Of a stretch of 64,000 bases of DNA, positions 952 to 57,806 are shown one piece after another. The position numbers and the translations under genes were made by a program. Numbering within the stretch: position 1 is the first letter of the stretch; each line of letters begins with the position of its first letter. The notes under the pieces are model-generated. The model saw only the letters and a list, made by a program, of their open reading frames with translations, ran no database searches and was not told where the DNA came from. Source of the stretch: an uncultured Pseudomonadales bacterium (GTDB lineage Bacteria; Patescibacteriota; Microgenomatia; UBA1400; PJMF01); contig CAZWKL010000001.1 in the NCBI GenBank assembly GCA_964633875.1, forward strand, positions 193,841-257,840, in the 5' to 3' direction.

Positions 952-952
952 C

Positions 953-3640: not shown

Positions 3641-4735
3641 TTATTCGGTTTGACTAATTATAGCCGATTCGTTGGTGAAAATACTTTGCACTTGTTTTTC
3701 CAGAGCAGTTTGATCACGGACAGCATAAACCCACTGATTTTGATAAGCACGCACCGGCGGATGCCAAAGAGCGCCACTTTCGTCATCGGGGTAAATGGTG
3801 AGTGAGTGTGGGTTGAGGGCAATATCTTGGCGCACTGGAGCGAGTTGTTTCACTAAAGCCGCCAACTCGACTATGGGCAGGTACTGATCATATTGGTTGA
3901 GATAATGCTGGTAGAGTTTGCCCAAAAGCGCCAGGTCAAGGATGATATCGGGACTCATGATTTTCTGAATCAGCGAGTTAATAACCAGTTGTTGACGCTC
4001 AGACCTGGCTAGATCGTGACCTTGATCATCATCGCTGTGACGACTGCGAATATACTCCAGGGCTCTCTCCCCACTCATGGTTTCCGGACCCTCCACAAAC
4101 GTCACGGTTTTGTAAAGTTTGGCAGGATCCCGTTCGACTGTGACGTCAACATCAGAGCGCGGAAACTGCTCATCGGTAAAGCCCTGAGGCACGTCTATCT
4201 TGATACCGCCAATTAAATCAACCAACTCAGCCAGCGAATCCATAGAAATCACCACCGTATGATGAACTGGCACATCGAGCATCTCAGCGATAGTTTCAGC
4301 GGGAAATCTCTCCGGCTCAGTCGGGTAGCGCTCTTGTCCGTAATAGTAAAGAGCATTGATTTTGGTAAGGTAGGTATCGCTCCAAAGGTCTCGGGGCAGC
4401 GATAGGGTATTGATCCGGCCGCTGGGAAGGTGAACAGAGGCTAACATGATGGTGTCTGTGAGCGGCGGCGCTCCTCCACGATTTTCGTGAGAATCAATGC
4501 CTAGAATCAGGATGTTTTTGTAATCGTTGCTGGCAATGACGGGAGTCTGCCAAGCTTCCTGAGCTAAAGCTCTCATTTCTGTGAAAGTCAGACCGGAATG
4601 CTCAGAAAATATTTTTAGTTGAGAGTAAAGGTAAAAACCCATGCCGCCGGCAAAAACTGCTGAAAAAACAAAAACCACTGCCAAACCGGACAAAATTACT
4701 ACCAAAAGCCTCTTAGCCAGCTCTTTATTTGTCAT
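3641..4735 (-). CDS. LytR-CpsA-Psr (LCP) family glycopolymer-to-peptidoglycan phosphotransferase
   Basis: N-terminal TM, then ILILGIDSHENRGG...DTIMLASVH...TLSLPRDLW, which is the LCP core. Confidence 0.85.
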   Translation of the reverse strand: MTNKELAKRLLVVILSGLAVVFVFSAVFAGGMGFYLYSQLKIFSEHSGLTFTEMRALAQEAWQTPVIASNDYKNILILGIDSHENRGGAPPLTDTIMLASVHLPSGRINTLSLPRDLWSDTYLTKINALYYYGQERYPTEPERFPAETIAEMLDVPVHHTVVISMDSLAELVDLIGGIKIDVPQGFTDEQFPRSDVDVTVERDPAKLYKTVTFVEGPETMSGERALEYIRSRHSDDDQGHDLARSERQQLVINSLIQKIMSPDIILDLALLGKLYQHYLNQYDQYLPIVELAALVKQLAPVRQDIALNPHSLTIYPDDESGALWHPPVRAYQNQWVYAVRDQTALEKQVQSIFTNESAIISQTE

Positions 4736-4788: not shown

Positions 4789-6480
4789 ATGAACTTGAAA
4801 CGGCTGTTTGTACCACTTGCTCTGGTAATAATTATTTTTGCTTGTAGCTGGTCGCTATTCCGTCCTGGTTTATTCGTTGTGCATGATTATCTTCACGCGG
4901 CCAGGATTGGAGAAATGGTCAGCATGCTGGCCGATGGCCAGCTGCCTCCCCGGTGGAGCAGTAATTTTGGTTTTGGGTATGGAATGCCACTTTTTCAGTT
5001 TTACGCGCCGCTACCTTATTTGCTTGGTTCCGCCTTTCATTTTGGCGGCTTACCCCTGGAACTAAATATCAAATTGCTGTTTATCCTCACCAATATCATG
5101 ACCGCAGTCGGGACATACTTATTGGGTAAAAGATTGTTTGGAATTTATGGCGGAATTTTTGCCGCTGCCGCTGTGACGCTGGCTCCTTATCGGGCGCTAA
5201 ATTTGTTTGTCCGGGGGGCATTAAGTGAAGCCTTTGGCATGATGTTTTTTCCTTGGATTTTACTATCTTTGTACTTAATTATTATCGAAAACCGCTCCCG
5301 TTATTGGTTGTTACTCAGCGTTGCTGTCACGGCGCTGCTGTTGAGTCATAATTTGTCTGCCTTGATTTTCCTGCCTCTATCGGGAATCACGGCCTTGGGC
5401 ATGATTGTTTGGAAAAAATACTCTCAAGGCAGTAAGCTGGAGTTGCGTCAAAGTTTGTTTAGCTTAATTAAAGGATACAGCTTGGCAGCGCTGATTTCTG
5501 CGTTTTACACCGTGCCGGCGCTGTTGGAGAAAAGTCACACTAAAGTGGACCAATTTATTGTCGGTGGCTATTTTGATTACGCCGTGCATTTTTTGGGACT
5601 CAAGCAATTTTTCACGGAAAATTGGGGTTATGGGGCTTCGGCTTACGGCATGTATGATGAGATTTCTTTCTACCTGGGTTTTGGCCAAATTTTGGCCTTG
5701 GGAACGGCGTTGTTAGTGTTGATAGCCCTGATGATTAAAAACAAAAATATCAAAAGTTACGTCCCAAGTTTTTTTTGGGCAGGACTGCTGTTGATCACTC
5801 TTTATTTCACTCATGGTAAGTCGAAATTTGTTTGGGATTGGGTTGAGCCGCTCAAGTATCTGCAATTTCCTTGGAGGTGGTTAAGCGCCGCCACTCTTTT
5901 CCTAGCTTTATTCTCGGGGAGCGTGTTGGCCTTGTTGAAGCCAAAATTGAGTAAGTTGGTGTTCGTGAGCTTCTCTGTTTTAATAATTTTAGTCAATTGG
6001 CGCTATTTTACTCCGAGCGAATACTTGGAAAACAACAGCGAGCTTTATTATCTGGACGAGGCGCGGATCAAAAACGAGCTGAGCTACATTTTGCCTGATT
6101 ACATTCCTGTCGAACTTGAAGCAAACCTTGAACCGGCCAAAACTGAGTTTTTCGACGAGTACGCAGGATTGGAAGTAATCTCGTTCAACTCGGTGAGCAC
6201 AGAAATTAAAACCCATTTTGAGGAGGCGCAAACAATTATCTTTGCCCGGGCTGATTATCCTGGTTGGAAAGTTTATCTCAACGGCAAAGAAACCGCCAAG
6301 AGAGTGACGGAATCGGGTTTGATTGGCGTGGCGGTGCCTGCTGGCGAGAATCAAGTGGAAGTGAAGCTGGAAGCGACTCGAGTGAGGCAAGTCAGCGACC
6401 TCGTTGCTGCTGTTGGGTTGGTAATTTTGTTATTCTTCGCTACACTTGAGCTTATTAAAGGACAAAAAGCGCATGCCTGA
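4789..6480 (+). CDS. PTPS-related/YfhO-like polytopic membrane protein (putative GT-C fold glycosyltransferase)
   Basis: HDYLHAARIGEM..ADGQLPPRW...FGYGMPLFQFYAPLPY is the signature N-terminus of the '6-pyruvoyl-tetrahydropterin-synthase-related' membrane protein family. About 12 TM helices plus a C-terminal extracytoplasmic domain. Confidence 0.6.
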   Translation: MNLKRLFVPLALVIIIFACSWSLFRPGLFVVHDYLHAARIGEMVSMLADGQLPPRWSSNFGFGYGMPLFQFYAPLPYLLGSAFHFGGLPLELNIKLLFILTNIMTAVGTYLLGKRLFGIYGGIFAAAAVTLAPYRALNLFVRGALSEAFGMMFFPWILLSLYLIIIENRSRYWLLLSVAVTALLLSHNLSALIFLPLSGITALGMIVWKKYSQGSKLELRQSLFSLIKGYSLAALISAFYTVPALLEKSHTKVDQFIVGGYFDYAVHFLGLKQFFTENWGYGASAYGMYDEISFYLGFGQILALGTALLVLIALMIKNKNIKSYVPSFFWAGLLLITLYFTHGKSKFVWDWVEPLKYLQFPWRWLSAATLFLALFSGSVLALLKPKLSKLVFVSFSVLIILVNWRYFTPSEYLENNSELYYLDEARIKNELSYILPDYIPVELEANLEPAKTEFFDEYAGLEVISFNSVSTEIKTHFEEAQTIIFARADYPGWKVYLNGKETAKRVTESGLIGVAVPAGENQVEVKLEATRVRQVSDLVAAVGLVILLFFATLELIKGQKAHA

Positions 6481-7939
6481 AACTGAGCTAGCGATTATTA
6501 AACGCCGGTCGTTGGTGGGAGCGATCTCATACTTCCTCAGAACCTTGGTGCTACAAGGCATTGGTTTTATTTCCATTATAGTTTTGAGTAAATTTTTCTC
6601 ACCTGAGGACTTTGGGATTTACGGCATTGTCATTCAAATTATCGGGATTTTGATTTTCTTTTCCGATATTGGTTTGGCCGCTTCTTTGATTCAGAAAAAA
6701 GCAGAGCCCACTAAAAAAGATTTGCAAACAGTTTTTGCTATTCAACAAATCTTGTCCTGGCTAATTGTGGGCGCAGTAGTGCTTTTAAGCCAGCTGGCCT
6801 TAATCCAGAACAAACTTGGACCTGATGGCACTTGGGTTTTGTATGCTTTGGCTATTTCTTTCCCGCTGGCCACCCTCAAGACTATCCCCTCAGTAATTTT
6901 GGAAAGAAAGTTGGAGTTTTCCAAGTTGGTGCTGCCACAAATATTTGAACAACTGGTTTTTCACAGTATTCTGATTTATTTGGCTTGGAACGGTGTGGGA
7001 GTTTTGGCTTATGCTTACGCAGTCATTGCCCGCTCAATTATTGGCGTGATAGTGATGAGCCTGATTCAACCCTGGCCGTTTGGCATCCGGCTGGACAAAA
7101 AGTCATTACTGGGACTGATTAATTTTGGAGTCAAGTTTCAACTCAACGACTTTCTGGCTAGAGTTAAAGATCAGCTTTTTTATCTGACTCTAGGTTTGGT
7201 TATTCCCACTCGCCAGTTTGGTTATATTCAGTGGGCTAAAAGTTGGTCGATGTATCCTTATAATTTAACTGTCCAAAATGTTTTAGCCATCACCTTTCCC
7301 AGTTTTTCACGCTTACAACATAATAAAGCGGCGCTAGCTAAAGCTATAGAAAAATCTCTTTTCTTTATCACTTTGGTTATTTTTCCCATTATAGTTGGTA
7401 TGTCTTTGTTTATTATTCCTTTACTGACTTTGATTCCTGATTATCAAAAATGGCTGCCAGCCGCTGCCAGCTTGATTCTGTTTAGTGCCAGTATTGCTTG
7501 GGGAGCAGTTTCTACCCCACTCACCAACACCCTCAACGCCATCGGCCAAATCAACCAAACCCTCAAACTCATGCTTTTATGGACGACACTTACCTGGATA
7601 CTGACTCCGGTTTTGTATGTTCTTTTGGGTTTCAACGGTGTTGCTTGGGCGGCGTTATTGATCAGCTTTACTTCAGCGCTGTCGGTTTATTATGTGCAAA
7701 AAGCAGTCTCGTTCAGTTTTCTGGACCAAGTTTGGCGACAGACTCTCGCTAGCCTGGTGATGGTGGTGCTTGGCTTGTTTGGTTGGCAGTATTGGCAGCA
7801 AGGTTTTACTCAACTACTAACAGGAATGCTCTTGGTAGGAGCCAGCTATCCGGCTGTACTTTTATTGATAGGAAAAGATAAAATACTTTCAGAAATCAAC
7901 TTGATACTAGCTATTGTCCGCCGGAAAGGAACAGCGTGA
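6473..7939 (+). CDS. wzx: Wzx-type oligosaccharide flippase (MOP/PST family)
   Basis: About 12-14 TM segments and a polysaccharide-biosynthesis-protein-like architecture. The start ATGCCTGA overlaps the upstream stop. Confidence 0.8.
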   Translation: MPETELAIIKRRSLVGAISYFLRTLVLQGIGFISIIVLSKFFSPEDFGIYGIVIQIIGILIFFSDIGLAASLIQKKAEPTKKDLQTVFAIQQILSWLIVGAVVLLSQLALIQNKLGPDGTWVLYALAISFPLATLKTIPSVILERKLEFSKLVLPQIFEQLVFHSILIYLAWNGVGVLAYAYAVIARSIIGVIVMSLIQPWPFGIRLDKKSLLGLINFGVKFQLNDFLARVKDQLFYLTLGLVIPTRQFGYIQWAKSWSMYPYNLTVQNVLAITFPSFSRLQHNKAALAKAIEKSLFFITLVIFPIIVGMSLFIIPLLTLIPDYQKWLPAAASLILFSASIAWGAVSTPLTNTLNAIGQINQTLKLMLLWTTLTWILTPVLYVLLGFNGVAWAALLISFTSALSVYYVQKAVSFSFLDQVWRQTLASLVMVVLGLFGWQYWQQGFTQLLTGMLLVGASYPAVLLLIGKDKILSEINLILAIVRRKGTA

Positions 7940-12660: not shown

Positions 12661-13767
12661 GTGTTTTTTAATTTTCAAAATCAACCTCAAAAATACCTGA
12701 CTACTATCGCACTGATAGTATTTTTGATTTTAATTCCAGTCATTCGTTATTGGGAGTATTTCTGCTGTTCAATAGATATCAATGAATACGAACAAAAATA
12801 TAGTACTTCACAATATGTTTTGGGTGAAAAATCACCACAAAAAATTAGCGATTCGGAATTGTATGTGTACGCCGGTTATGCTTATGTGAAAGGCGAGGAC
12901 CCGACCACTATCAATTTTGAACACCCTCCTTTGGCCAAATATTTCTATGGGCTGTTTCACCATCTCACCGGCAACCCCTACCGGGCTAACTTGCCTCTGT
13001 ATGGTGGTATTTTGGGCTTATTTTACTTGTTATCGGGACTAGTTACGTCTAAAAAAGTTTGGCGTTGGTTGGCCTTGATGGTGATGGGTACTTTTGCGCT
13101 GATCCAAGTGCATTTACGTTACGCGCTTTTAGATTTGCCGCTACTTTTTGCTTATTTATTGTTTTTTTATGGATTGTTGGGCAATTTCAAGGGTAATAAA
13201 AAAGCACTCATAGTTGGCATTGGTTTGGGCATTGCTGCAACCGTAAAATATCCGTTTCCACTCGTAGCTCTGTTGGTGATGTTTTTAGCCATTGATGCGT
13301 GGAAGAAAAAAGAACTGAGAGAAGCTGTTATTGCCTTGATTATTTCAGCAATTATTTATTTTGCTTCTTATACAATGTTTTTTGTTCATAATCACAACCT
13401 TCTTGATTGGTTTGCTTTTGAAAAATACCGCCTGAGTTGGTTTATGGGAAAAACTGATGCGCCGAAGTTTCTGAACCTTCACACACTTTTTACTGGCCAA
13501 TACAAAACTTGGTGGGAAGGAGGCGGTTACGAAAAAACTGCTCACTGGTCTATTACTTGGCCATTAGTGTTCGTGGGTTCGGTGGGAGGCTTTCTTCTTG
13601 GACTCAAAAGAAAAGAGTATCGTCTGTTGGTTTTAACTAGCTTTGCTTATTTACAACTTTTAATCTATGGACTAGGAGCAGCAGCTAGTGACAGGTTTTT
13701 CATCACACTGTTGCCGTTTTGGGTATTGGGAAGCGTTTATTTATTAATTACGATTAAAAAACTATGA
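12661..13767 (+). CDS. GT39/PMT-like (ArnT superfamily) polyprenyl-phosphate-sugar-dependent membrane glycosyltransferase
   Basis: SDSELYVYAGYAYVKGEDPTTINFEHPPLAKYFYG matches the PMT loop-1 'DE...HPPL(A/G)K' signature, followed by multiple TM helices. Probable GTG start at 12661 with an AGGGGAGA SD upstream; the ORF-track start lies inside the upstream gene. Confidence 0.65.
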   Translation: MFFNFQNQPQKYLTTIALIVFLILIPVIRYWEYFCCSIDINEYEQKYSTSQYVLGEKSPQKISDSELYVYAGYAYVKGEDPTTINFEHPPLAKYFYGLFHHLTGNPYRANLPLYGGILGLFYLLSGLVTSKKVWRWLALMVMGTFALIQVHLRYALLDLPLLFAYLLFFYGLLGNFKGNKKALIVGIGLGIAATVKYPFPLVALLVMFLAIDAWKKKELREAVIALIISAIIYFASYTMFFVHNHNLLDWFAFEKYRLSWFMGKTDAPKFLNLHTLFTGQYKTWWEGGGYEKTAHWSITWPLVFVGSVGGFLLGLKRKEYRLLVLTSFAYLQLLIYGLGAAASDRFFITLLPFWVLGSVYLLITIKKL

Positions 13768-15305
13768 AATTTTTTATGGCTGTAAAAAAATATTATTTAC
13801 CGATTTTGCTTTTATTTTTAGTAGCCTTAACCAGGTTGCCATATCTTATCGACGGAGTTATTCCCTTTGGTTTTGACCACGGCAAAGATTCGCTGGCGAT
13901 CATGAACATGTTGGTCTCCAAACAACTTACTTTTATTGGTCCCTGGACCAGTATTCCGGGTTTGTATTTTGGGCCGGGGTGGTATTACTTGCTGGCCCCC
14001 TTTTTCTTGTTTGGTAATTTTAATCCGGTTTCAGCTGTTTATGCCATGTTTATTTTGGTGATGATTCAAGTGTATTTGGCCTATAAGTATTTTGGTAAAA
14101 TTGCGGCCATTATTATAGCCGGCGCCCCATTCTGGCTGATGATTTCCACCAGCGCTTGGAATCCTTTTCCTATGACTTTACTGACTTTAATTATTCTGAT
14201 TGTTTTCAAAAAGATCAGAGAAGATGGGCTTTTAAATGAAAAACGAGCTTTAGTTTTAAGCTTAGCTGCCGGCTTTGGCTTTCATTTTTCGGCAGCTTAT
14301 GCGATTTTTTATTTTCCTGCCGTTGCTTTAGTATTATTTTATTTAAAACCTAAAACCAATATTAAGGCTGTAGCTGCGGGAGCACTCGGGTTATTATTGC
14401 CTTTTAGCCCCCAACTACTTTTTGAACTCAGAAATAACTTTATCCAAACCAAGTCGGTTATCGATTATTTTAAAGCTGGCGAACCACATACTTTTGGTTT
14501 AGACAAGATTGTTAATGTGATTCGTACTACCTTCAACGATTTAGGCAATGGTTTTTTGCCCGAATTTAGATTACTGTCTAAAAACACTAACCGCTTGATT
14601 AAGCAATTAGTCCTGCTCAGCTTTTTGCCAATTATTTACAGTCAAATTAAGAACAAAAACAAAACTGTTGCCAAAGATTTTAATTATTATTTAGTATTAT
14701 TCATTGCTTTCATACTGATTCCGATGATGGGCTTTTTCTTTCTGCACTTTAATGTTTGGTATGTTTACGCCATGATTCCGGTGATGGTGCTGTTGGTAGC
14801 TAGAATTATCATGATTGCTCCAAAATGGTACCAAATCATTTTTTGTACTTTAATGGTTCTGACTCCTGTTGTTAGTTATCTTGACTATTTGAGCGTTGAT
14901 AAAGCCAAATTACTAACCAATCATTCATTTTTGCCGGTAAAAAAGGAAGCAATCAGGACAATTAGAGAAAAAGCTGGTGCTGAGCCCTTTGCTTCATATC
15001 ATTACTTGCCGGATATTTATGATTTTTCTTACCAGTATTTGTATTTTAGTGATGCTCTCAATGGTAAAGAACTACCGGTTGAGTTTGCTTATATGCCAGA
15101 AGCGGTGCCCTATATAGTGCAAAAAGAATGGTTGTTGACCCAACTGCCTCGCCAACTGAAACAGCCAGACAAAATATTTTTCATAGTTGAAAAGCCAGAA
15201 AATGAAGAGTTTCTTTCTCAGTGGTGGGGTCAACAGCAGTTTGGCGAAATTACAGAAACCATCAAGATTAATGAGACAGTAACTGTTTATGTGGCTACGC
15301 CATAA
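13764..15305 (+). CDS. Polytopic membrane protein, putative GT-C type glycosyltransferase
   Basis: About 11 TM helices, an extracytoplasmic loop with FGFDHGKD near the N-terminus, and a soluble C-terminal domain. Architecture resembles ArnT/GT39, but the motif assignment is tentative. Confidence 0.5.
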   Translation: MKFFMAVKKYYLPILLLFLVALTRLPYLIDGVIPFGFDHGKDSLAIMNMLVSKQLTFIGPWTSIPGLYFGPGWYYLLAPFFLFGNFNPVSAVYAMFILVMIQVYLAYKYFGKIAAIIIAGAPFWLMISTSAWNPFPMTLLTLIILIVFKKIREDGLLNEKRALVLSLAAGFGFHFSAAYAIFYFPAVALVLFYLKPKTNIKAVAAGALGLLLPFSPQLLFELRNNFIQTKSVIDYFKAGEPHTFGLDKIVNVIRTTFNDLGNGFLPEFRLLSKNTNRLIKQLVLLSFLPIIYSQIKNKNKTVAKDFNYYLVLFIAFILIPMMGFFFLHFNVWYVYAMIPVMVLLVARIIMIAPKWYQIIFCTLMVLTPVVSYLDYLSVDKAKLLTNHSFLPVKKEAIRTIREKAGAEPFASYHYLPDIYDFSYQYLYFSDALNGKELPVEFAYMPEAVPYIVQKEWLLTQLPRQLKQPDKIFFIVEKPENEEFLSQWWGQQQFGEITETIKINETVTVYVATP

Positions 15306-15349
15306 AACTAGCATAGTCGAAAATAAATTTTTGCGTTAGGATAAAAGAT

Positions 15350-16408
15350 ATGAAGAAACACGTGCTGTCGGCTCTGATTATTTTTGCTTATTTTTTTCTA
15401 GTCCTAGATGCTTTTAATATACCCAATCCTTTTGATTCGATTTCTATTTTCGACTCCAGACTGATGGCGGTATTAGCGCCGCTACTTGGTTTTGCGTCCA
15501 TCAAATTTTTTGGAACTAAGCCAGATTCTTTTTTTTGGAAAATTCATAATTACTTGTTATTTCCACTTTGGGGAATAGTGGCGGCTATTTTTTTAGGTTT
15601 AGAGCTGTACCATTACAACACTTATGTCCAAGAAATTTTTGGTTTCAATGTTTCCCGTCTTGTTTATCTGCCTCTGGCAATAGGAGCGACGGCTTTATTC
15701 ACCAAGCCTGTTAAGTTCTACCAACAGCACTGGCGAGCGCTAATTTTTATTGCTCCTGGCGTATTGTTTGTGGCGGCGGCCCTAATTTATGTCAGAAATA
15801 ATTTTATTTTTCGCTGGCTGGTGGCAGAAGATTCGTTGGTGGAATACGTCCAGTTTTTACTACTGATGGGTTCAGCGATTCTGGCTGGCGTGAGCGCCAA
15901 ATTTTGGCTGAGGAAAAATAAATTAATTGGCCTTGTTTTGGTGGCAGCAACGCTTTTATTAGCGCTGGTAGCAGCAGAAGAAATATCCTGGGGACAGAGG
16001 CTCTTAAACATTGACACTCCGGAAGAGTTTGCGGCCAGAAATACCCAGGGAGAACTGACTTTACATAATATTAATTCAGTTTTTGGCTATGTTTATCGTG
16101 GCTACATGATCATTGGTTTGGTTGGCAGTTTGCTTTGGACTATTAAAGCTAGACTGGTGAAATTTTTTGGTGGTCAAATTGGAGCTTTACTGGAAGTATT
16201 GACACCGGATTGGTATTTGTTTTTTTACTTTTTTGTTGCTTTTGCTTATAATTTTGATCGGTTTTATGTGCGGCTCAGAAAAGGAGAGACTCTTTGGGAA
16301 GAGCCAATGGAGTTGTTGCTGATTCTGGGAATTTTCTTATTTTTTCTAGTTCAGTATTTTTCACTCACTCGCCTAGCAGCTAGGATACCGGCTCGTAAGG
16401 TGTCGTGA
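15350..16408 (+). CDS. Hypothetical polytopic membrane protein
   Basis: About 9 TM segments with a conserved-looking AEEISWGQRLLN loop. No family recognised. Confidence 0.5.
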   Translation: MKKHVLSALIIFAYFFLVLDAFNIPNPFDSISIFDSRLMAVLAPLLGFASIKFFGTKPDSFFWKIHNYLLFPLWGIVAAIFLGLELYHYNTYVQEIFGFNVSRLVYLPLAIGATALFTKPVKFYQQHWRALIFIAPGVLFVAAALIYVRNNFIFRWLVAEDSLVEYVQFLLLMGSAILAGVSAKFWLRKNKLIGLVLVAATLLLALVAAEEISWGQRLLNIDTPEEFAARNTQGELTLHNINSVFGYVYRGYMIIGLVGSLLWTIKARLVKFFGGQIGALLEVLTPDWYLFFYFFVAFAYNFDRFYVRLRKGETLWEEPMELLLILGIFLFFLVQYFSLTRLAARIPARKVS

Positions 16409-16420
16409 TATGATGATTCC

Positions 16421-17218
16421 ATGCTTTCTGTAGTGTTAGCCACTTACAATGAAGAAGCCAATCTCGAGCGTTGCTTGAGTTCGGTGGCTGAGTTTGCCGA
16501 TGAGATAGTGGTGGTGGATGGCAGCTCCACTGATAATACCCGTCAGTTGGCCAAAAAACTGGGTGCCCGGGTCATTAAAACCACCAACAAGCCCAACTTT
16601 CACATCAATAAACAAATGGCTATGGATGCTGCTAAAGGCAAACTGGTGCTACAACTGGACGCGGATGAGGTAGTGGATGATGATCTGGCCACTTTTATTC
16701 TCGATGAGTATAAGGCTAGGTTTGAACACAACACTAAGTCGCCCGAAGCTCAGCCGGTAGCCTGGTGGCTGAATCGAAAAAACTACTTTCTTGGCTCTTT
16801 TTTGAAAAAAGGCGGCCAATATCCTGATCCGGTAATTAGGCTTTATATCAATGGTTTTGCTAAGTTGCCACAAAAAGATGTTCACGAACAGATGACTGTG
16901 ACTGGTGAAGTTGGGGTGGCGGGCGGCCATCTTATCCACTACGGCAATCCTTCATTCGCGGATTACTTGAGAAAATTCAACACCTACACTTCTTTTAAGG
17001 CCGCCCAACTTAAAGAAGCGGGTACAAAAATTACCGTCGGCAACTCTTTTAAACACCTTGTTTGGCAACCGCTACAAACATTTTTTAGTCTTTACTGCCG
17101 CCACAAGGGTTTTGTGGATGGCGTACCCGGCTTTGTTTTTGCAGTGATGAGCGGACTGCATCATAGTATTGCTTACTTAAAATTATGGGAAACTTATGAA
17201 AGTACTGATCGACACTAG
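16421..17218 (+). CDS. Glycosyltransferase family 2 (KdtX/WaaE-like subfamily)
   Basis: SVVLATYNEEANL...ADEIVVVDGSSTDNT...LDADE. Confidence 0.8.
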   Translation: MLSVVLATYNEEANLERCLSSVAEFADEIVVVDGSSTDNTRQLAKKLGARVIKTTNKPNFHINKQMAMDAAKGKLVLQLDADEVVDDDLATFILDEYKARFEHNTKSPEAQPVAWWLNRKNYFLGSFLKKGGQYPDPVIRLYINGFAKLPQKDVHEQMTVTGEVGVAGGHLIHYGNPSFADYLRKFNTYTSFKAAQLKEAGTKITVGNSFKHLVWQPLQTFFSLYCRHKGFVDGVPGFVFAVMSGLHHSIAYLKLWETYESTDRH

Positions 17219-18248
17219 TCCGCTTTCCAGTGGTCACGCCATCAGAGGAGTGGGTACCTACACCAGAGAATTGGTGGAGCATCTTGAGCAAATCGAAGGC
17301 ATTGAGGTTTTTCGCTCATCCACTCTGGGAAAAAAGAAAGATGTTAAGCCTGACATCACTCACTTTCCTTTTTTTGACCTCTTTTTTAACACTTTGCCAA
17401 TTGAGATGAGTAAAAAGACGGTGGTGACAGTTCATGACGTTATTCCACTTAAATTTCCCGAATTTTATCCACCTGGAATCAAGGGCAAGTTGAGATTTGA
17501 GAAACAAAAGCTGGCTTTGAAAACGGCAAGCGGCGTTATTACCGACTCGGAGTCGTCAAAAACGGATATTATTGAACGTCTGGGAATTCCTGCAGAAAAA
17601 GTACACGTGGTTTATCTAGCAGCCAATCCCAATCTGGTAGCTCAAAAAGACGCAGTGATTGGTAAAATCCTCAAGCGCTACCAACTGCCCAAAGAGTACC
17701 TTTTGTACGTTGGTGACATTAATTACAATAAAAACATTCCTCAACTGATTAAAATGGTGAAGTTTTTACCTGAAAATCTGCACTTGGTTTGTGTGGGCAA
17801 GAACTTTGTTGAACAAGAAATTCCGGAATGGCAATGGGTTGAAACGCAGCTGGCGCTTAGCAACGTGGCGCCGAGAGTTCATTTTCTCACCAATGTTTTG
17901 ACCGATTCTGAGGAGGATTTGGCGGCTATTTACTCCGGCGCTCTTTGTTATATTCAGCCGAGCTTGTATGAAGGTTTTGGTCTACCGGTTTTGGAAGCGA
18001 TGCAGTGCCGCACTCCGGTGGTGGCCGCCAACACTTCCTCTCTACCCGAAGTAGGCGGAGAGCATGCTGTTTACACCGGTACCAGCGCGGAAGAGCTGGC
18101 GGCAGGAGTGGAACAAATTTTGAGCTGGTCTAAAACCAGACGCGAACAAAAAATCAAGGAAGCTTACAAATGGAGCCAAACTTTCAGTTGGCAAAAAACC
18201 GCGGCCAACACAGTTGAGGTTTACAAAAAAATACTGGGGCAAGAATAA
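17196..18248 (+). CDS. Glycosyltransferase family 4
   Basis: GT-B architecture with the C-terminal SLYEGFGLPVLEAM..G.PVV motif. Confidence 0.8.
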   Translation: MKVLIDTSPLSSGHAIRGVGTYTRELVEHLEQIEGIEVFRSSTLGKKKDVKPDITHFPFFDLFFNTLPIEMSKKTVVTVHDVIPLKFPEFYPPGIKGKLRFEKQKLALKTASGVITDSESSKTDIIERLGIPAEKVHVVYLAANPNLVAQKDAVIGKILKRYQLPKEYLLYVGDINYNKNIPQLIKMVKFLPENLHLVCVGKNFVEQEIPEWQWVETQLALSNVAPRVHFLTNVLTDSEEDLAAIYSGALCYIQPSLYEGFGLPVLEAMQCRTPVVAANTSSLPEVGGEHAVYTGTSAEELAAGVEQILSWSKTRREQKIKEAYKWSQTFSWQKTAANTVEVYKKILGQE

Positions 18249-18262
18249 AAAGAAAGGCAGTA

Positions 18263-19183
18263 ATGAAAATAATCGTGACAGGCGGAGCCGGCTTTTTAGG
18301 CAGGCATTTATGTCGGGCGCTCAAAAATGCCGGACATGAAATTAAGATCATAGACCTCAAAGAAAATCCGGAATTTCCCACTGTGATAGCCGATGTTCGT
18401 GATAGCAAAAAAATGCTTGAGGAAATCAAGGATGCCGAGGTGGTTTTTCATTTGGCCTCGCTGATTGAGGCCGGTGAGTCGGTGAAACAACCAGCCAGGT
18501 ACGCTGATTACAATATTATGGGCACGATTGCCGTGCTTGAGGCCATGAGGCAGAACAATATCAAGACTTTTATTTTTTCTTCAAGCGCGGCCATTTACGG
18601 TGAACCACTTCAAGTGCCGATTAAAGAAGACGATCGCACCCTGCCTATCAGCCCTTACGGGATGACCAAGCTAGCGATGGAGGGCTTGCTTTCTTCATAC
18701 TGTCAGGCCTATGATTTTACCGGTGTGGCTTTGCGCTACTTCAATCTGTATGGCCCGGAGGAACATCATCAGCCTGAAACGCATGCTATTCCTCGGTTTA
18801 TTAAACAAGTTCACGAGGGTAGTGAAGTAACGGTTTGGGGTGGTGGTGAACATCAGCGTGATTATGTTTATATTGATGATATTGTGGCAGCGCATTTGCA
18901 GGCTTTAAATTATGCGACCGCTCCGGAAAATCAGGCAAAATATCACTATTTCAATCTTTCGACGGAAAGAGCGGCTTCTGTCTTGGATATTGTGAAAATT
19001 GTTAGTGATGTTGTGAGTAAAGAAGCCAAGGTCAAGCATTTTCCTGAGAGGCCAGGGGATCCACTGGTGTTGGTGGCAGATGCCAGCAAAGCGAAGGAGC
19101 AATTGGGTTGGCAGGCAAAAGTGCAGCTGGAAGAAGGTTTGAAGAAAACAACGGAGTATTTTTTGAAGCTTTGGGAAAAGTAA
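18263..19183 (+). CDS. NAD-dependent sugar-nucleotide epimerase/dehydratase (GalE-like SDR)
   Basis: IIVTGGAGFLG Rossmann motif with catalytic YGMTKLAME (YxxxK). Confidence 0.85.
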   Translation: MKIIVTGGAGFLGRHLCRALKNAGHEIKIIDLKENPEFPTVIADVRDSKKMLEEIKDAEVVFHLASLIEAGESVKQPARYADYNIMGTIAVLEAMRQNNIKTFIFSSSAAIYGEPLQVPIKEDDRTLPISPYGMTKLAMEGLLSSYCQAYDFTGVALRYFNLYGPEEHHQPETHAIPRFIKQVHEGSEVTVWGGGEHQRDYVYIDDIVAAHLQALNYATAPENQAKYHYFNLSTERAASVLDIVKIVSDVVSKEAKVKHFPERPGDPLVLVADASKAKEQLGWQAKVQLEEGLKKTTEYFLKLWEK

Positions 19184-19184
19184 C

Positions 19185-19490
19185 TTACTGTCGCGGCTTG
19201 AACTTGATTTCCAAATTGCTGTTGAGCGCCTCCGCAAGTTTGGTTAAGAAATCAAGCGAAGGACTGGTATTACCGGCTTCAATTCTTGAGATCAAAGATT
19301 GACTGGTGCCAATTTTCTTGGCAAGTTGAGCTTGGGTGAGGTTGAGTTGATATCTTGCCCTAATTAAGTTGTTGACAACTTTTAGCCTGGGCTGTAATTT
19401 CTCATACTCCTTTTTAAATTCGGGATCTTTTAGCAACTCTTTTTTAACTTCAGAGTAAGGTATGGTTCTTGCTTTTAGTTTGTTTTTCAT
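19185..19490 (-). CDS. higA: XRE-family HTH antitoxin (HigA-like)
   Basis: LTQAQLAKKIGTSQSLISRIEAGNTSPSLDFLTKLAEAL is a canonical Cro/C1 helix-turn-helix. It lies directly downstream of the Gp49-like toxin on the same strand. Confidence 0.75.
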   Translation of the reverse strand: MKNKLKARTIPYSEVKKELLKDPEFKKEYEKLQPRLKVVNNLIRARYQLNLTQAQLAKKIGTSQSLISRIEAGNTSPSLDFLTKLAEALNSNLEIKFKPRQ

Positions 19491-19521
19491 AATGTTCTAA
19501 AATGTTTGATGCATCAGCATG

Positions 19522-19851
19522 TTACAGTATTTCATTTCTTCTCGCAATCGCCGTTTTGATCTCCCGAAACGGCACTTTATTGGTTTTCTTTTTGAATGCG
19601 TGCAGTAAAACAAAGACACCACCGATTATAGTATATAAAATTCTCACTTGAATTTTACCGGTAATTCTAAGTTCATATATATTTGAATCTAGTTTTTTGC
19701 TAAATTGTGGTGATATAAATGGACCATTTTCTTCCAATGCATCGATCGCAGAAGCAATTTTTACCCCTGTCTGTGGTTGCTGATTTTTTATAAAGATTTC
19801 AACCGGGTTGTCGCCCCTGGTGTTTTTATAAAATAATACTTCCCAACTCAT
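19522..19851 (-). CDS. higB: Type II toxin, RelE/ParE superfamily (Gp49/HigB-like)
   Basis: 109 aa, MSWEVLFYKNTRGDNPVEIF...NIYELRI...ILY, typical of the phage Gp49-like HigB toxin. Toxin-first order, 31 bp upstream of the XRE gene. Confidence 0.7.
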   Translation of the reverse strand: MSWEVLFYKNTRGDNPVEIFIKNQQPQTGVKIASAIDALEENGPFISPQFSKKLDSNIYELRITGKIQVRILYTIIGGVFVLLHAFKKKTNKVPFREIKTAIARRNEIL

Positions 19852-19907
19852 TTAACAGCCATTTTAAATTGAAAACCCTGCGCCAACCTTGCAAACAAGA
19901 ACCTACA

Positions 19908-19919
19908 AAATGTTACAAT
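19908..19919 (+). promoter_or_regulatory. Possible extended -10 promoter element (TGtTACAAT) for the epimerase gene. TTGCAA lies 19 nt upstream.
   Basis: TTGCAA at 19889-19894 and TGTTACAAT at 19911-19919. The ATG is only 9 nt downstream, so this is possibly a leaderless transcript. Read by eye only. Confidence 0.25.
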
Positions 19920-19928
19920 AAGCAAACA

Positions 19929-20879
19929 ATGACTATTCTTGTTACCGGCGCCGCTGGTTTTATCGGCTCACATACCTCTGAAGCGCTACTGAAGCAAGGC
20001 CATCAGGTGATTGGCCTTGACAATCTCAATGAGTATTACAATCCGGAATGGAAAAAAGAAAACCTGGTGCCGCTGCAAAAATACGACAGCTTTGTTTTCT
20101 ATCAACAAGACATCCGTGATGCTGCCGGAGTAGAGGAGTTGTTTGAGCTTCATCAAGTAGAAGCCATTGTCCACTTGGCTGCCAGGGCTGGCGTGAGAGC
20201 CTCCATAGAAAATCCGCTCATCTATGAAGAAACCAATGTCCGCGGCACACTCAATCTCCTCGAGATTGCCAGGCAAAAAAAGATCAAGCAGTTTGTTTTT
20301 GCTTCCTCGAGTTCGGTCTATGGTAACCAGAAAAAAGTGCCTTTCAGCGAAACCGATCCTTGTAATCAGCCTATTAGCCCTTATGCGGCCACTAAAAAAG
20401 CCACGGAAATGCTGGCTCACACCTACGCTCATCTTTACGATATCAACTGCATTGGTTTGCGGTTTTTTACCGTTTATGGCCCGGCAGGCAGACCAGATAT
20501 GGCGCCCTATCTTTTTACCGAGGCGATTTTGACAGGCCAACCGATTAAAAAATTTGGCGACGGCAATACCAGGAGGGATTACACTTATATCGATGACATT
20601 GTGGTGGGTGTGACAGCGGCCGTCAGCCTGAAAAGAAAGTTTGAAATTATTAATTTGGGCAATAATACTCCCGTTAGCCTCAATGAGTTTATTGAAACTT
20701 TGGAAAATATCACCGGCAAAAAGATGCTGATTGAGCAAAAAGAGCTGCAACCAGGCGATGTTGAGCAAACTTATGCTGATATTAGCAAGGCTCAGGAGTT
20801 GCTTGGTTTTCAGCCCAGGACGCCGTTTAGAGATGGGCTGGTAAAATTTGTCCAGTGGTATCAAGAAAATCGGCTTTAA
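19929..20879 (+). CDS. NAD-dependent epimerase (UDP-glucuronate 4-epimerase / WcaG-like SDR)
   Basis: MTILVTGAAGFIGSH...YAATKKATE (YxxxK) and LRFFTVYGP. The internal Met at 19929 is preferred. Confidence 0.8.
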   Translation: MTILVTGAAGFIGSHTSEALLKQGHQVIGLDNLNEYYNPEWKKENLVPLQKYDSFVFYQQDIRDAAGVEELFELHQVEAIVHLAARAGVRASIENPLIYEETNVRGTLNLLEIARQKKIKQFVFASSSSVYGNQKKVPFSETDPCNQPISPYAATKKATEMLAHTYAHLYDINCIGLRFFTVYGPAGRPDMAPYLFTEAILTGQPIKKFGDGNTRRDYTYIDDIVVGVTAAVSLKRKFEIINLGNNTPVSLNEFIETLENITGKKMLIEQKELQPGDVEQTYADISKAQELLGFQPRTPFRDGLVKFVQWYQENRL

Positions 20880-20930
20880 ATATTCATACATTCCCTTGCC
20901 ATAACCTCGATATAAGGGTACGATATCTCC

Positions 20931-21842
20931 ATGCACATTTCCTTTGTAATTCCCGTAGTTAATGAGAGAGAAAATGTAGCACAGCTGCATGCAGAAATAG
21001 TGGCTGCAGCCAAGAAAATAGGAAAAACTTATGAAATTATTTTTGTTGATGATGGCTCTACTGATGGTACTCAAAAAGAAATTCAAAAGCTAAAGCCGGT
21101 GCGATTGCTTGAAATGCGCCGCAACTTTGGCCAAACAGCGGCGCTCGATGCCGGCATTAAGGCTGCTCAGGGTGAGTTTTTAGTCACTTTGGATGGCGAT
21201 TTGCAAAATGATCCGGCTGATGTGCCGGCAATGCTCAAAATGCTTCAAGATGAGCAGTTGGACGTGGTTTGTGGCTGGCGATTCCAGCGCCATGACAGTT
21301 TCACCAAGCGGTTTATTTCTGCCGGGGCGAGAAAGTTCAGAGGGATTTTGGTGGAGGACGGTATTCATGATTCCGGCTGTACTCTGCGGGTGTATAAGAA
21401 AGAGGCTTTTGATGATTTGGATTTGCGCGGCGAGATGCACCGTTTTATTCCGGCCATCTTGAAGTGGCGAGGGTTTAAAATTGGGGAGATGAAGGTCAAT
21501 CACCGGCCCAGAATCCACGGACGCACCAAGTACGACATGAAGAGAACAGTTAAGGGCTTTTTGGATATGCTCAGCCTGTGGTTTTTTAGGAAGTATGCTA
21601 ATCGGCCGCTGCATTTTTTGGGGGCAGTTGGGTTGGGGTGCTTTGCTTTGGGAGTAGCCCTTGGGGGCTACTTGGCTGTAGGCAGGTTGCTCGGGTGGTT
21701 TGGCTTGTCTCAAAGCATCTGGCCACTGACAGCGGTATTTTTGGTGCTGTTTGGCATGCAGATGTTTGTGAGCGGGTTGATTATGGATTTGGTGATGACT
21801 AGTAGTAGAGCGAAGAATTATTTTACGAAAAAGAACTCTTAA
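20931..21842 (+). CDS. Polyprenyl-phosphate hexosyl/glycosyl transferase (DPM1/Ppm1/GtrB/ArnC family GT2)
   Basis: ISFVIPVVNERENV...YEIIFVDDGSTDGT...DGDLQNDP motif, with two C-terminal TM helices (LHFLGAVGLGCFALGVAL...IWPLTAVFLVLFGMQMFVSGL). Confidence 0.85.
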   Translation: MHISFVIPVVNERENVAQLHAEIVAAAKKIGKTYEIIFVDDGSTDGTQKEIQKLKPVRLLEMRRNFGQTAALDAGIKAAQGEFLVTLDGDLQNDPADVPAMLKMLQDEQLDVVCGWRFQRHDSFTKRFISAGARKFRGILVEDGIHDSGCTLRVYKKEAFDDLDLRGEMHRFIPAILKWRGFKIGEMKVNHRPRIHGRTKYDMKRTVKGFLDMLSLWFFRKYANRPLHFLGAVGLGCFALGVALGGYLAVGRLLGWFGLSQSIWPLTAVFLVLFGMQMFVSGLIMDLVMTSSRAKNYFTKKNS

Positions 21843-21855: not shown

Positions 21856-23613
21856 ATGCTTCAGATTATTCGAAAACTCAGCGATATTCTTCCCAGACGA
21901 GATAAGATCAGGATAGTGATTCTTTTTTTTATGATGCTTGGCGCTGGCATTCTTCAGTTGGTGGGCCTCGGAATGATTCTGGCTTTTATCTCCATTCTTG
22001 CTGATGCAGAAACTATTCTTAACCATGAACAGCTTGGCACCCTTTGGCAACTCCTCAACATTCAAGATTTTTATGGTTTACTTATTTGGGGATCGGCGGT
22101 TTTAGCTCTCATTTTTCTGATCAAAAGTCTTTACCTCATTTTTTACAACTACATACTGTCTAGATTTGCTCATAATAAGTTTCGCAATATTGCTACTGAA
22201 TTATTTGCCAGTTATATGTTTTTGCCATACAGCTTTCACTTGCAAAACAACTCAGCCACCTTGATTCGCAACGTGACTGTTGAAACCAACATGTTGCTTA
22301 AGTTTCTGCTTATCCCCATGCTCTCGATTCTGATGGAATCAGTGATGATTATCACTGTGCTGATTTTTCTGTTCATTGTTGAGCCAACGGTAACAATCAT
22401 GGCAGCTCTCTCGATTGGCCTAGCGGGCTTTTTGCTGATAAAACTGCTGAAAAAATATGAACAAGCCTATGGCAGAAAGGCTCAAAAAAGTCGAGGCGAG
22501 GTGATTCAGTACGTCAACGAAGGCTTGGGTGGTATTAAGGAAATTAAAGTACTTAATCGGCAGCAATACTTCATTAACAAACTTAGGTCCGCGATGGAAG
22601 TGCTTAAACAAGCCGAGACTTACAACGAAACTTCCAAAGAAAGCTTTCGGCCGGCAATAGAGTTGATTGCGGTGGGTGGGATGGTGACAATGGCGCTGAT
22701 TATGGCCATACAAGGCAGAGGAGCGGAAGATATTATTCCTGTGTTGACGCTATTTGGTGTGGGCGCTTTTCAATTGCTGCCTTCTTTTGCCAAAATCACC
22801 AACCAATACAGCAAGCTGGATTATCATAGTCACACCATCATCCCCATTCATGAGGATTTGATGAAAGTATCAAGGAAAGTTAGAACAAATTTAAAGAAGG
22901 CCAGTTTCGAAACCCTGCCTCTCAATCAAGCAATTAAGTTAGATAAGGTTGGTTTTGCTTACTCTGATGATAGTAAGCCTGTTCTTAAAAATATTTCACT
23001 AAGTATTCCTAAGGGGGCGGCTGTTGGGATAGTGGGTAAATCTGGTGCGGGTAAGACCACTCTGGTGGATCTGATTTTGGGATTATTTGAGCCGACAAAT
23101 GGGGAAATTTTGGTAGATGGAAAAGATATCAAAGAAAACCTGATTGCTTGGCAGAGCAATGTCGGCTATATTCCGCAAATTATCTATTTGGCCGATGATA
23201 CAGTACGCAAAAATATTGCCTTTGGCTTGAACGATGAGGAAATTGATGAAGAGAAACTAATAAAAGCAGCGGAAATGGCTCAGCTAATCGAGGTAATCGA
23301 TGAGTTACCAAAGGGTTTTGAGACACTAATCGGAGAGAATGGACTGAGGCTGAGTGGTGGCCAGAGGCAGAGAATAGGCATTGCTAGGGCTTTGTATCAC
23401 GACCCAGATGTACTGGTGATGGATGAAGCCACATCTGCTCTGGACAATGAGACTGAGCAGTATATTATCAAATCTATTGAACGACTGAGGGGCGAGCGAA
23501 CAATTATTATTATTGCTCATAGGCTGACCACGGTGCAAAATTGCGATCAGCTCTATTTACTTGAAGACGGAAAGGTGTTAAATTCGGGTACATATAAGGA
23601 GTTGTATGGGTAA
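21856..23613 (+). CDS. ABC exporter, fused permease-ATPase (MsbA/PglK-like lipid-linked-glycan flippase candidate)
   Basis: 6-TM N-domain, Walker A GKSGAGKTT, signature LSGGQRQRIGIARAL, Walker B VLVMDEATSALD, H-loop IIIAHRL. Confidence 0.85.
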   Translation: MLQIIRKLSDILPRRDKIRIVILFFMMLGAGILQLVGLGMILAFISILADAETILNHEQLGTLWQLLNIQDFYGLLIWGSAVLALIFLIKSLYLIFYNYILSRFAHNKFRNIATELFASYMFLPYSFHLQNNSATLIRNVTVETNMLLKFLLIPMLSILMESVMIITVLIFLFIVEPTVTIMAALSIGLAGFLLIKLLKKYEQAYGRKAQKSRGEVIQYVNEGLGGIKEIKVLNRQQYFINKLRSAMEVLKQAETYNETSKESFRPAIELIAVGGMVTMALIMAIQGRGAEDIIPVLTLFGVGAFQLLPSFAKITNQYSKLDYHSHTIIPIHEDLMKVSRKVRTNLKKASFETLPLNQAIKLDKVGFAYSDDSKPVLKNISLSIPKGAAVGIVGKSGAGKTTLVDLILGLFEPTNGEILVDGKDIKENLIAWQSNVGYIPQIIYLADDTVRKNIAFGLNDEEIDEEKLIKAAEMAQLIEVIDELPKGFETLIGENGLRLSGGQRQRIGIARALYHDPDVLVMDEATSALDNETEQYIIKSIERLRGERTIIIIAHRLTTVQNCDQLYLLEDGKVLNSGTYKELYG

Positions 23614-57185: not shown

Positions 57186-57806
57186 ATGCAATACGAACAG
57201 CAAAAACGAATTTTGGATCTTCTGGTGGCAGTCGTGTTAACGATCCTGTTTTTACCCATTTGGATTATTGTGCCATTTTTGATTTATCTTGAATCCGGCA
57301 CGCCCATAATTTTCAAACATCGGCGCGTGGGCCAGGGCGGTGAAGAGTTTTACCTTTATAAATTTCGCTCAATGATTAAAAATGCTGATGAGATTCTCCA
57401 CAAACATAACAAAAAATTGCTGAAAAAATTTAAAGAAAATGATTGGAAAATTGAAAATGACCCCAGAGTGACTACGCTCGGCAAAGCCTTGAGGTCGTTG
57501 ACAATTGATGAGTTTCCACAAATTTATAATGTCCTCAGGGGCGAGATGAGCATGGTAGGGCCGAGAGCCTATGTTAAAAAAGAACTGGCAGAACAATCAA
57601 AGCGCTATCCCAAAACCAAAAACTTGATTAGAAACATCGTTTCTGTCAAACCGGGGATTACCGGCCCGTGGCAGACAAGCGGCAGAAACGAGATTCCTTT
57701 TGCCACTCGAGCTAAAATGGACGCCGATTACGCCCAAAAACGCTCCATCATCGAAGACATTAAAATCCTTTTGAAAACCCCGCGCGCCATGATTTCCAAA
57801 TGGTAA
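57186..57806 (+). CDS. Initiating polyprenyl-phosphate phosphoglycosyl transferase (small PglC/WbaP C-domain type bacterial sugar transferase)
   Basis: Single N-terminal TM, then PIIFKHRRVGQGGEEFYLYKFRSM...DEFPQ...MSMVGPRA, the Bac_transf core. Confidence 0.85.
   Translation: MQYEQQKRILDLLVAVVLTILFLPIWIIVPFLIYLESGTPIIFKHRRVGQGGEEFYLYKFRSMIKNADEILHKHNKKLLKKFKENDWKIENDPRVTTLGKALRSLTIDEFPQIYNVLRGEMSMVGPRAYVKKELAEQSKRYPKTKNLIRNIVSVKPGITGPWQTSGRNEIPFATRAKMDADYAQKRSIIEDIKILLKTPRAMISKW

Follow-up and report, generated by a model that had tools for sequence, protein, structure and literature searches.

A surface-glycan locus of a Microgenomates-type Patescibacterium with a predicted polyprenyl-phosphate sugar synthase of GtrB/ArnC type and seven divergent GT-C membrane proteins

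Introduction

Glycosylation outside the cytoplasmic membrane with lipid-linked sugars is well described for three-component systems such as Gtr, CsbB/GtcA/YfhO, GacI-L and Csd/CflA, in which a membrane-anchored family 2 glycosyltransferase (GT2) makes an undecaprenyl-phosphate (Und-P) sugar and one or more glycosyltransferases (GTs) of the GT-C class act on the exported glycan (PMC11127046, PMC7389260, PMC10821137). Systems composed of a synthase, a flippase and a GT-C enzyme modify the O-antigens of Shigella, Salmonella, Klebsiella and Citrobacter (PMC11127046), the lipoteichoic and wall teichoic acids of Bacillus and Listeria (PMC7389260) and the lactococcal wall polysaccharide (PMC10821137), while streptococcal proteins are O-glycosylated by GtrB/PgtC2 and Pgf (PMC12041528). 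The three-component logic is described as widespread in Gram-negative O-antigen modification and is also found in Firmicutes (PMC11127046, PMC7389260, PMC12041528). Here we describe a candidate system of this kind, consisting of a GtrB/ArnC-like synthase and seven GT-C membrane proteins, in a stretch of 64,000 nucleotides from an uncultured bacterium (assembly GCA_964633875.1, contig CAZWKL010000001.1, positions 193,841 to 257,840), which is referred to as the window; genes are named after their first coordinate in it, with a “c” for the complementary strand where needed. A preliminary description made from the sequence of the window had taken such GT-C systems to be characterised only in Actinobacteria and in lipid A modification, a view which is wrong in light of the systems published for Gram-negatives and Firmicutes.

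Bacteria of the Candidate Phyla Radiation (CPR, or Patescibacteria) have genomes of roughly 1 Mb and live mostly attached to other cells, which is why the surface is central to their biology. To our knowledge, almost nothing is known about the chemistry of this surface, and a literature search found no publication on extracytoplasmic glycosylation with lipid-linked sugars in CPR/Patescibacteria. The window shows a CPR bacterium that gives more than 55 kb to envelope glycans and has the whole logic of extracytoplasmic glycosylation. That a lipid-phosphate-sugar synthase works with GT-C enzymes in this organism is well supported by the protein families, the modelled folds and the gene order in relatives that are discussed below.

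The predicted polyprenyl-phosphate sugar synthase

The product of gene 20931 matches the Pfam family Glycos_transf_2 over residues 4-163 (E=4e-32), contains the motif VTLDGDLQNDP and ends in two hydrophobic helices at about residues 232-250 and 262-290. In a search of the sequences in the PDB, its alignment with the solved ArnC extends over the full length of the protein (residues 3-287, E=5e-33) with the membrane helices included, and D88-G-D90 is aligned with the D-A-D of ArnC. The alignment with the GtrB protein sll0501 (1e-23) reaches residue 252, and that with the Pyrococcus furiosus DPMS (5e-16) covers the catalytic domain only. Among the ten GT2 open reading frames (ORFs) of the window, 20931 is the sole one with a C-terminal transmembrane (TM) hairpin. 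By these sequence comparisons, the grouping of 20931 with the membrane-anchored polyprenyl-phosphate glycosyltransferases, and not with cytosolic GT2s, is well supported, which agrees with the synthase type that had been proposed from the DGDLQNDP motif and the TM helices.

The scores of 20931 stay below the equivalog cut-offs of NCBIfam, with 129.5 versus 529 bits for ArnC, 116.2 (E=1.7e-33) versus 500 bits for PgfS, 81.6 versus 325 bits for AglJ and 64.9 versus 370 bits for PpgS. A scan of representative genomes found relatives scattered across many bacterial and archaeal phyla, the best of them being 50-56% identical. Because even the best relatives reach no higher identity and are scattered in this way, the enzyme family of 20931 is widespread and probably mobile.

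Seven GT-C membrane proteins

Seven membrane proteins of the window (4789, 12661, 13764, 32792, 34632c, 40352 and 49748) had been proposed as GT-C enzymes. All of them hold up by Pfam or by modelled fold, so that their assignment to the GT-C type, and not to transporters, is well supported; the ORFs and motifs on which the proposal had been based are all present in the sequence. Pfam gathering scores are passed by four of the seven (4789, 34632c, 40352 and 49748). Below threshold, 4789 also matches PMT_2 (25.0 bits) and the C-terminus of YfhO (23.3 bits), and it has orthologues in two related loci (L002 and L003 in our numbering of the loci of relatives). In single-sequence searches against the sequences of solved structures, none of these four proteins found a match, and the family profiles of 12661, 13764 and 32792 gave no real match there either. 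The description of the seven as a multi-paralog set overstates their kinship; they are highly divergent GT-C families and not recent paralogues, the closest pair in pairwise BLAST being 13764 and 40352 with 29% identity over 240 aa. Profile-profile comparison among the GT-C families and with 49748 gave probabilities of at most about 5% and was uninformative.

The protein 12661 carries YVKGEDPTTINFEHPPLAKY, and its start at 12661 (ATG) was also chosen by the gene caller used on the metagenome. Its first loop, which is predicted to be extracytoplasmic, contains the motif GEDP..FEHPPLAKY, and N85, F86, E87, H88, P89, P90, K93 and Y94 are invariant in the family. Pfam finds a PMT match in 10 of 30 relatives and a PMT_2 match in nine. 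The protein-O-mannosyltransferase signature that had been read into this protein is present as a motif, but 12661 is probably not a canonical PMT, as it has 368 aa and stays slightly below the Pfam threshold. The distance between its ED pair and HPPLAK is also much shorter than in yeast Pmt1.

The two families of 13764 and 32792 are without any match in Pfam, NCBIfam or the PDB sequences, and their annotation comes from structure models built from homologues. The 13764 model has a predicted local distance difference test (pLDDT) score of 93, and in Foldseek ALG12 and ArnT rank first, with Pmt4 also among the best fold matches. The 32792 model (pLDDT 85.5) is matched best by ALG3, PIG-M and ALG6 and has a beta-sandwich at about residues 475-590 resembling a carbohydrate-binding module (CBM), which is predicted to be extracytoplasmic and precedes the C-terminal helix. 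A “GT-C_B” label considered for 32792 was dropped, because ALG6, ArnT, PglB and PimE are placed in GT-C_A (PMC12041525). New elements here are this annotation, at the level of predicted folds, of two conserved GT-C families and the membrane family of 15350, which occurs in fusion with one of them. The gene 32792 is convergent with 34632c, and the 3' ends of the two overlap by 89 nt.

The catalytic aspartates of GT-C enzymes sit in the first segment past the first TM helix (TM1) (PMC12041525), and each GT-C family that was modelled or aligned has invariant acidic residues in this segment. In the 12661 family, these residues are D64 and E87, both invariant, and the near-invariant D80. The 13764 family has an invariant FDHGKD loop just past TM1, with D38 and D42 invariant in 40 sequences at the start of helix 37-52, and D31 of the 32792 family is near-invariant at the start of helix 30-45. 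Loop 1 would face outward according to the positive-inside rule, by which the topology was predicted.

Gene order in relatives

In the closest Patescibacterial locus (L015, Woesebacteria), an epimerase of the short-chain dehydrogenase/reductase (SDR) family is followed by a GT-C of the 12661 family and then by a GtrB-like synthase. A PMT_2 gene abuts the GtrB-like synthase in L038 (Saccharibacteria), and in L024 (Patescibacteria) the two are at most 2 kb apart. When the neighbours of GtrB-like genes were counted in 81 related loci, six to seven of them had a GalE-like SDR no more than 500 nt away, and all but one of these loci belong to the 18 best hits. Epimerase, synthase and GT-C genes thus recur together. 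In the window, the ATP-binding cassette (ABC) exporter 21856 begins 13 nt past the synthase gene, but the link to an exporter is weak, as only two of the 81 loci have one beside the GtrB-like gene.

A second arrangement is found in L002 (Pacebacteria-like), in which trmD is followed by rml genes, LCP (LytR-CpsA-Psr), Wzx, a gene of the 13764 family, four large unannotated membrane proteins and GT2 genes. Beyond trmD lie genes for an SDR and a UDP-glucose dehydrogenase and then, a few kb from trmD, a fusion of GT2 and GtrA_DPMS_TM (390 aa; 188-1360, minus strand) beside a PMT_2 gene (1-183, minus strand); this fusion is lacking in the window. The arrangement in L003 and several metagenomic loci is similar to that of L002. 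The backbone of trmD, rml, LCP, Wzx and a 13764-family GT-C, with further GT-Cs after it, is a lineage trait common to Pacebacteria-like contigs.

These gene orders bear on the donor of the GT-C enzymes. Several of the seven could be oligosaccharyltransferases, ligases or polymerases whose substrates are oligosaccharides linked to a lipid diphosphate and brought out by Wzx, with 20931 serving one or two of them at most. The two Wzx proteins, the phosphoglycosyl transferase (PGT) and about 20 cytoplasmic GTs of the window would make Und-PP-linked repeat units, the GT-C gene 49748 begins 4 nt past the Wzy_C gene 48011, and in L002 the 13764-family gene stands directly 3' of Wzx. On the other hand, the best fold matches are users of monophosphate-linked sugars (Pmt4, ALG12 and ArnT for 13764; ALG3, PIG-M and ALG6 for 32792). 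No STT3, PglB or AglB profile scored above threshold, the match of 4789 to the archaeal STT3 amounting to 14.9 of the 450 bits needed (E=0.006), and where synthase and GT-C are neighbours, as in L015, L024 and L038, this speaks for monophosphate donors, at least in the case of the PMT-like proteins. Diphosphate-linked donors for several of the GT-Cs are thus rather unlikely.

Donor sugar and export of the lipid-linked sugar

Two GalE-like SDR genes, 18263 and 19929, precede 20931 in the window, and the latter probably supplies the donor sugar to the synthase. Between the two SDR genes, the minus strand encodes a toxin-antitoxin pair (19185-19851) in which an HTH_3 antitoxin is combined with a Gp49/HigB-like toxin; its GC content of 35-39% is below that of its neighbours.

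The preliminary description had pointed to mannose in analogy to the actinobacterial Ppm1/Pmt system, in which case 20931 would make polyprenyl-phosphate mannose from GDP-mannose supplied by ManC, and the PMT-like 12661, 49748 and others would mannosylate serine and threonine residues of secreted proteins. The manC gene is indeed within the window, the PMT model matches 49748 and 34632c, and 12661 is a borderline case with its HPPLAK-type motif. However, PMT_2 and PMT matches are generic for ArnT-like GT-Cs, and ALG12 and ArnT score level with Pmt4. The synthase itself fits ArnC, GtrB and PgfS, all of them users of UDP-sugars, much better than DPMS, and does so over its full length; its best scores fall on ArnC and PgfS and not on a dolichyl-phosphate hexose or mannose synthase. 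The genes that flank it, both in the window and in several of its closest relatives, are GalE-like epimerases and not manC, which is 34 kb away in the window. Furthermore, no Ser/Thr-rich disordered segment was found in six window proteins scanned, five of which are predicted to be membrane or extracytoplasmic proteins. Protein O-mannosylation of the actinobacterial type is therefore improbable, and as far as can be judged from the sequence, a UDP-hexose or UDP-hexosamine is a more likely donor than GDP-mannose.

A lipid-linked sugar made by 20931 would have to be flipped across the membrane, and two gene products of the window are candidates for this step, the ABC exporter 21856 and the membrane protein 15350. 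The exporter was rejected as a dedicated flippase on account of its rare adjacency to GtrB-like genes and is kept as a weak candidate.

Proposed mechanism and acceptors

We propose that 20931 acts at the cytoplasmic face of the membrane, where it would load polyprenyl (undecaprenyl) monophosphate with a single sugar taken from a UDP-sugar. This donor would probably be a hexose or hexosamine that has been 4-epimerised by the adjacent GalE-like SDRs. After flipping, the GT-C enzymes, with the acidic residues of loop 1 facing outward, would pass the sugar on to extracytoplasmic acceptors. The likeliest acceptors would be wall polysaccharides. The PGT of the locus and its GT2 and GT4 enzymes would assemble them on a lipid carrier, after which the two Wzx proteins would export them and the LCP enzyme would join them to peptidoglycan. 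A second possibility would be surface proteins. Probably only some of the seven GT-Cs depend on 20931, with 12661 as the best-linked partner, and the others may use different donors.

A polysaccharide linked to peptidoglycan is suggested as acceptor because the genes for LCP, Wzx, Wzy_C and PGT are all present in the locus. Members of the LCP family ligate glycopolymers to peptidoglycan. There is precedent for a modification of such polymers on the outside, as lactococcal and streptococcal rhamnopolysaccharides and teichoic acids receive side chains or extensions outside the cell (PMC10821137, PMC7389260). A membrane-anchored glycolipid similar to lipomannan or lipoarabinomannan would be another conceivable acceptor, which the GT-Cs would extend and branch stepwise with polyprenyl-phosphate sugars, on the model of the mycobacterial PimE, MptA, MptB, MptC, Emb and Aft. 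Such a lipoglycan would be in keeping with seven divergent GT-Cs beside many PimA-like GT4 enzymes, and PimE, AftA, AftB, AftD and EmbA are indeed among the fold matches, but these mycobacterial enzymes rank lower. In addition, the Pfam scan found no family for the synthesis of phosphatidylinositol or another glycolipid anchor among the about 60 main ORFs, while the LCP ligase and the Wzx/Wzy-type genes point to a polymer linked to peptidoglycan. A lipoglycan as the product is thus very improbable.

Several observations weigh against the proposed pathway as a whole. The synthase adjoins no GT-C in the window, the nearest being 13764, which lies upstream at a distance of about 5.6 kb, and 32792, which lies downstream at about 11 kb, and the toxin-antitoxin pair on the opposite strand stands between the genes at 20931 and the upstream cluster. 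NCBIfam gives no equivalog-level match for the synthase. An ABC exporter is found beside the GtrB-like gene in only two of the 81 related loci, and no GtrA_DPMS_TM match was found among the about 60 scanned ORFs of the window, all of at least 100 aa (the largest intergenic gap in the scanned window is 179 nt). AglB, STT3 and PglB are among the GT-C fold matches, and the GT-C class also includes oligosaccharyltransferases with diphosphate-linked donors. Finally, one synthase may not serve all seven very divergent GT-Cs, and the rest of the genome may encode further synthases; L002, for comparison, has the GT2-GtrA fusion beside a PMT_2 gene. With these points taken into account, we hold with moderate confidence that 20931 is an Und-P-sugar synthase which together with the GT-Cs decorates extracytoplasmic acceptors, most likely a wall polysaccharide.

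The 15350 membrane protein family

The gene directly 3' of 13764 encodes a multi-pass membrane protein, 15350, for which sequence and family-profile searches found no relative in Pfam, NCBIfam or the PDB. The family is large, with 3544 representatives at 50% identity, and has the invariant residues W214-G-Q-R217, N231, Q233, E235, H239-N240, E318 and E321, which form the pattern W-G-Q-R, N-x-Q-x-E-x3-H-N and E/E. The WGQR and NxQxExxxHN motifs probably face outward. Matches of the family profile to ubiquitin were discarded as a short spurious motif, and 15350 is not assigned to the GT-C class, as its profile has no similarity to those of the 13764 and 32792 families.

In two proteins (P0167, 846 aa; P0194, 864 aa) an N-terminal part similar to 15350 is fused to a 13764-like GT-C. 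In other members of the family, the fusion partner is a TupA-type ATP-grasp domain (P0282) or a set of TPR repeats (P0350). In metagenomic loci of at least 6 kb, the family is often found amid rml, LCP, Wzx, GT2, GT4, GtrB-like and GT-C genes; about one third of these loci have no recognisable neighbour. The natural fusion to a 13764-type GT-C suggests that 15350 could be a partner of GT-C enzymes. A broader and speculative model, to which we give little weight, would be that in Microgenomates-type CPR a large part of the surface glycan is assembled on the outside by a battery of lineage-specific GT-Cs, with 15350 as a new GT-C partner. In this model, 15350 would be either a component for flipping or donor delivery in the place of GtrA or an extracytoplasmic glycan-modifying enzyme.

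Organisation of the locus

A Pfam scan of about 60 main ORFs assigns nearly every gene from about 950 to about 59,800 of the window to glycan synthesis, the run being broken only by ruvCAB (44232-46362) and the toxin-antitoxin pair. This region forms a super-locus for surface glycans in a Patescibacterium of the Microgenomates type. For three membrane ORFs, those relatives that carry a name are almost all Patescibacteria, among them Pacebacteria, Woesebacteria, Beckwithbacteria and Microgenomates. Exact protein matches for 20931 and trmD are found on the 202-kb metagenomic contig ena:ERZ27247346:k141_1866340, on which housekeeping genes lie upstream of the window.

The main features are listed in Table 1. 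In all, the window has about ten genes for GT2 and eleven for GT4 enzymes, four for SDRs that are epimerases or dehydratases and one for an acetyltransferase. The manC gene, the many GT4s and the LCP gene, all named in the preliminary description, were recovered by the Pfam scan, but a LysM protein was not: 37312-37896 (minus strand) has no Pfam match at E<=1e-3 and is LysM-like by eye only. In this small protein, LAMTGC resembles a lipobox signal, and the LysM-like-looking segment is YPVEKGDTLFELAQKF. The DUF4012 protein at the end of the locus may be a component similar to polysaccharide-pathway co-polymerases or an export component.

Table 1. Features of the glycan locus (coordinates within the window).
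Feature	Position	Strand	Evidence and remarks
rmlD, rmlC, rmlB	953-3469		
LCP family protein	3641..4735	-	LytR_cpsA_psr 7e-29; position kept in L002 and L090
GT-C, PTPS_related/YfhO-like	4789..6480	+	PTPS_related 35.3 bits (cut-off 26.4); first gene past the divergent LCP gene
Wzx-type (MOP) flippase	6446..7939	+	Polysacc_synt_3 1.3e-46
Short PMT-like GT-C (368 aa)	12661..13767	+	PMT 21.9 bits, E=1.5e-4, cut-off 22.7
GT-C family without prior annotation	13764..15305	+	FDHGKD loop; C-terminal alpha/beta domain
Multi-pass membrane protein without annotation	15350..16408	+	directly 3' of the 13764 GT-C gene
GalE-like SDR epimerase, second copy	18263..19183	+	Pfam Epimerase 3e-62; NCBIfam GalE 229 bits (cut-off 262); last gene of the upstream plus-strand cluster
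GalE-like SDR epimerase or dehydratase	19929..20879	+	Pfam Epimerase, GDP_Man_Dehyd; NCBIfam GalE 218 bits (cut-off 262)
GtrB/ArnC/PgfS-type polyprenyl-phosphate sugar synthase	20931..21842	+	GT2 domain, DGD motif, C-terminal two-helix membrane hairpin
Fused ABC exporter, MsbA/PglK/HepA type	21856..23613	+	Pfam ABC_membrane, ABC_tran; NCBIfam MsbA 334 and PglK 324 bits, both below cut-off
GT-C without annotation, ALG3/PIG-M/ALG6/PIG-U-like	32792..34720	+	extra CBM-like domain; C-terminal TM helix
PMT_2-family GT-C (669 aa)	34632..36641	-	PMT_2 32.8 bits, PMT 25.9 bits
Wzx-type flippase, second copy	37978..39261	+	Polysacc_synt 6e-16
PMT_2-family GT-C	40352..41872	+	PMT_2 28.1 bits; loop-1 DE motif FWLDEAAQ
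Wzy_C membrane protein (O-antigen ligase or polymerase family)	48011..49744	+	Wzy_C 3.7e-13
PMT_2/PMT-family GT-C	49748..51214	+	PMT_2 46.7 bits, PMT 42 bits; loop-1 motif HSWRQADTA
ManC-type mannose-1-phosphate guanylyltransferase	56073..57176	+	NTP_transferase, ManC_GMP_beta-helix
Small initiating PGT (Bac_transf)	57186..57806	+	Bac_transf 6.7e-59; NCBIfam EPS_sugtrans 228 bits
DUF4012 protein (666 aa)	57835-59835	+	one N-terminal TM helix; directly 3' of the initiating PGT

Two further observations concern the composition of the locus. The recombination genes ruvC, ruvA and ruvB have a block of glycosyltransferase genes on either side, all in the same orientation. Between 24727 and 31623, the GC content falls to 26-33%, compared with 42-50% in the flanks, and this island contains a GNAT, three methyltransferases (one of them a weak Pfam match), a PylC/CPS-like ATP-grasp ligase, two GT2s and one GT4. 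It is probably a horizontally acquired cassette for glycan modification that was inserted into the locus.

Comparison with known systems

The three-component systems resemble the locus in that 20931 can be aligned to the solved GtrB and ArnC and 4789 has PTPS_related and YfhO-like signatures, and the synthase and the GT-Cs are genomically linked in the window by a common 60-kb locus. In contrast to these systems, a gene for a small flippase of GtrA/GtcA type was not found among the about 60 ORFs, seven divergent GT-Cs take the place of one or two, the synthase does not stand beside a GT-C as it does in relatives, and the host is an uncultured member of the CPR.

A GtrB-like synthase, a 4-epimerase and GT-C enzymes are shared with the streptococcal systems Pgf (PgfS, PgfM1, PgfE and PgfM2) and GtrB/PgtC2 (PMC12041528). 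By contrast, the PgfS score of 20931 is far under the cut-off of 500 bits, the GT-Cs of the window have no sequence kinship to solved structures, and the window proteins that were checked are without Ser/Thr-rich acceptor regions.

In the case of ArnC and ArnT, the likeness lies in ArnC being the best solved and the best NCBIfam match of 20931, in ArnT being among the best folds for 13764 and in the presence of a DegT-type aminotransferase and an SDR nearby in the window. However, the ArnC score is 129 versus 529 bits, no family of lipid A or lipopolysaccharide biosynthesis is found among the main ORFs, and neither an ArnA formyltransferase nor ArnD or ArnE/F was found. An Arn-like aminosugar pathway composed of the SDR, DegT, GNAT and ArnC-like proteins was considered and rejected, as the aminotransferase is best matched by DesI-type enzymes of dTDP-sugar synthesis; the idea is further weakened by the position of the GNAT and the genes downstream of it in the low-GC island, which is probably of separate origin.

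With the actinobacterial network of Ppm1/Pmt and PimE/Mpt/Emb/Aft, the locus shares fold matches and, in the proposed reading, the principle of one pool of polyprenyl-phosphate sugar that feeds many envelope GT-Cs. Unlike that network, its synthase is nearer to users of UDP-sugars than to the DPM1 type, no pathway family for phosphatidylinositol, arabinose or decaprenyl-phosphoribose is found among the main ORFs, and the lineage and envelope type differ.

The families of 13764, 32792 and 15350 are concrete targets for further study, the last of them being large and fused to GT-Cs in some genomes. As the mechanism of a synthase working with GT-C enzymes is established elsewhere, the locus represents a new example and not a new principle. 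It is set apart by the absence of a GtrA-type gene among the scanned ORFs, by two GT-C families that were without annotation, by the number and divergence of the GT-Cs in a single locus and by its place in a CPR lineage.

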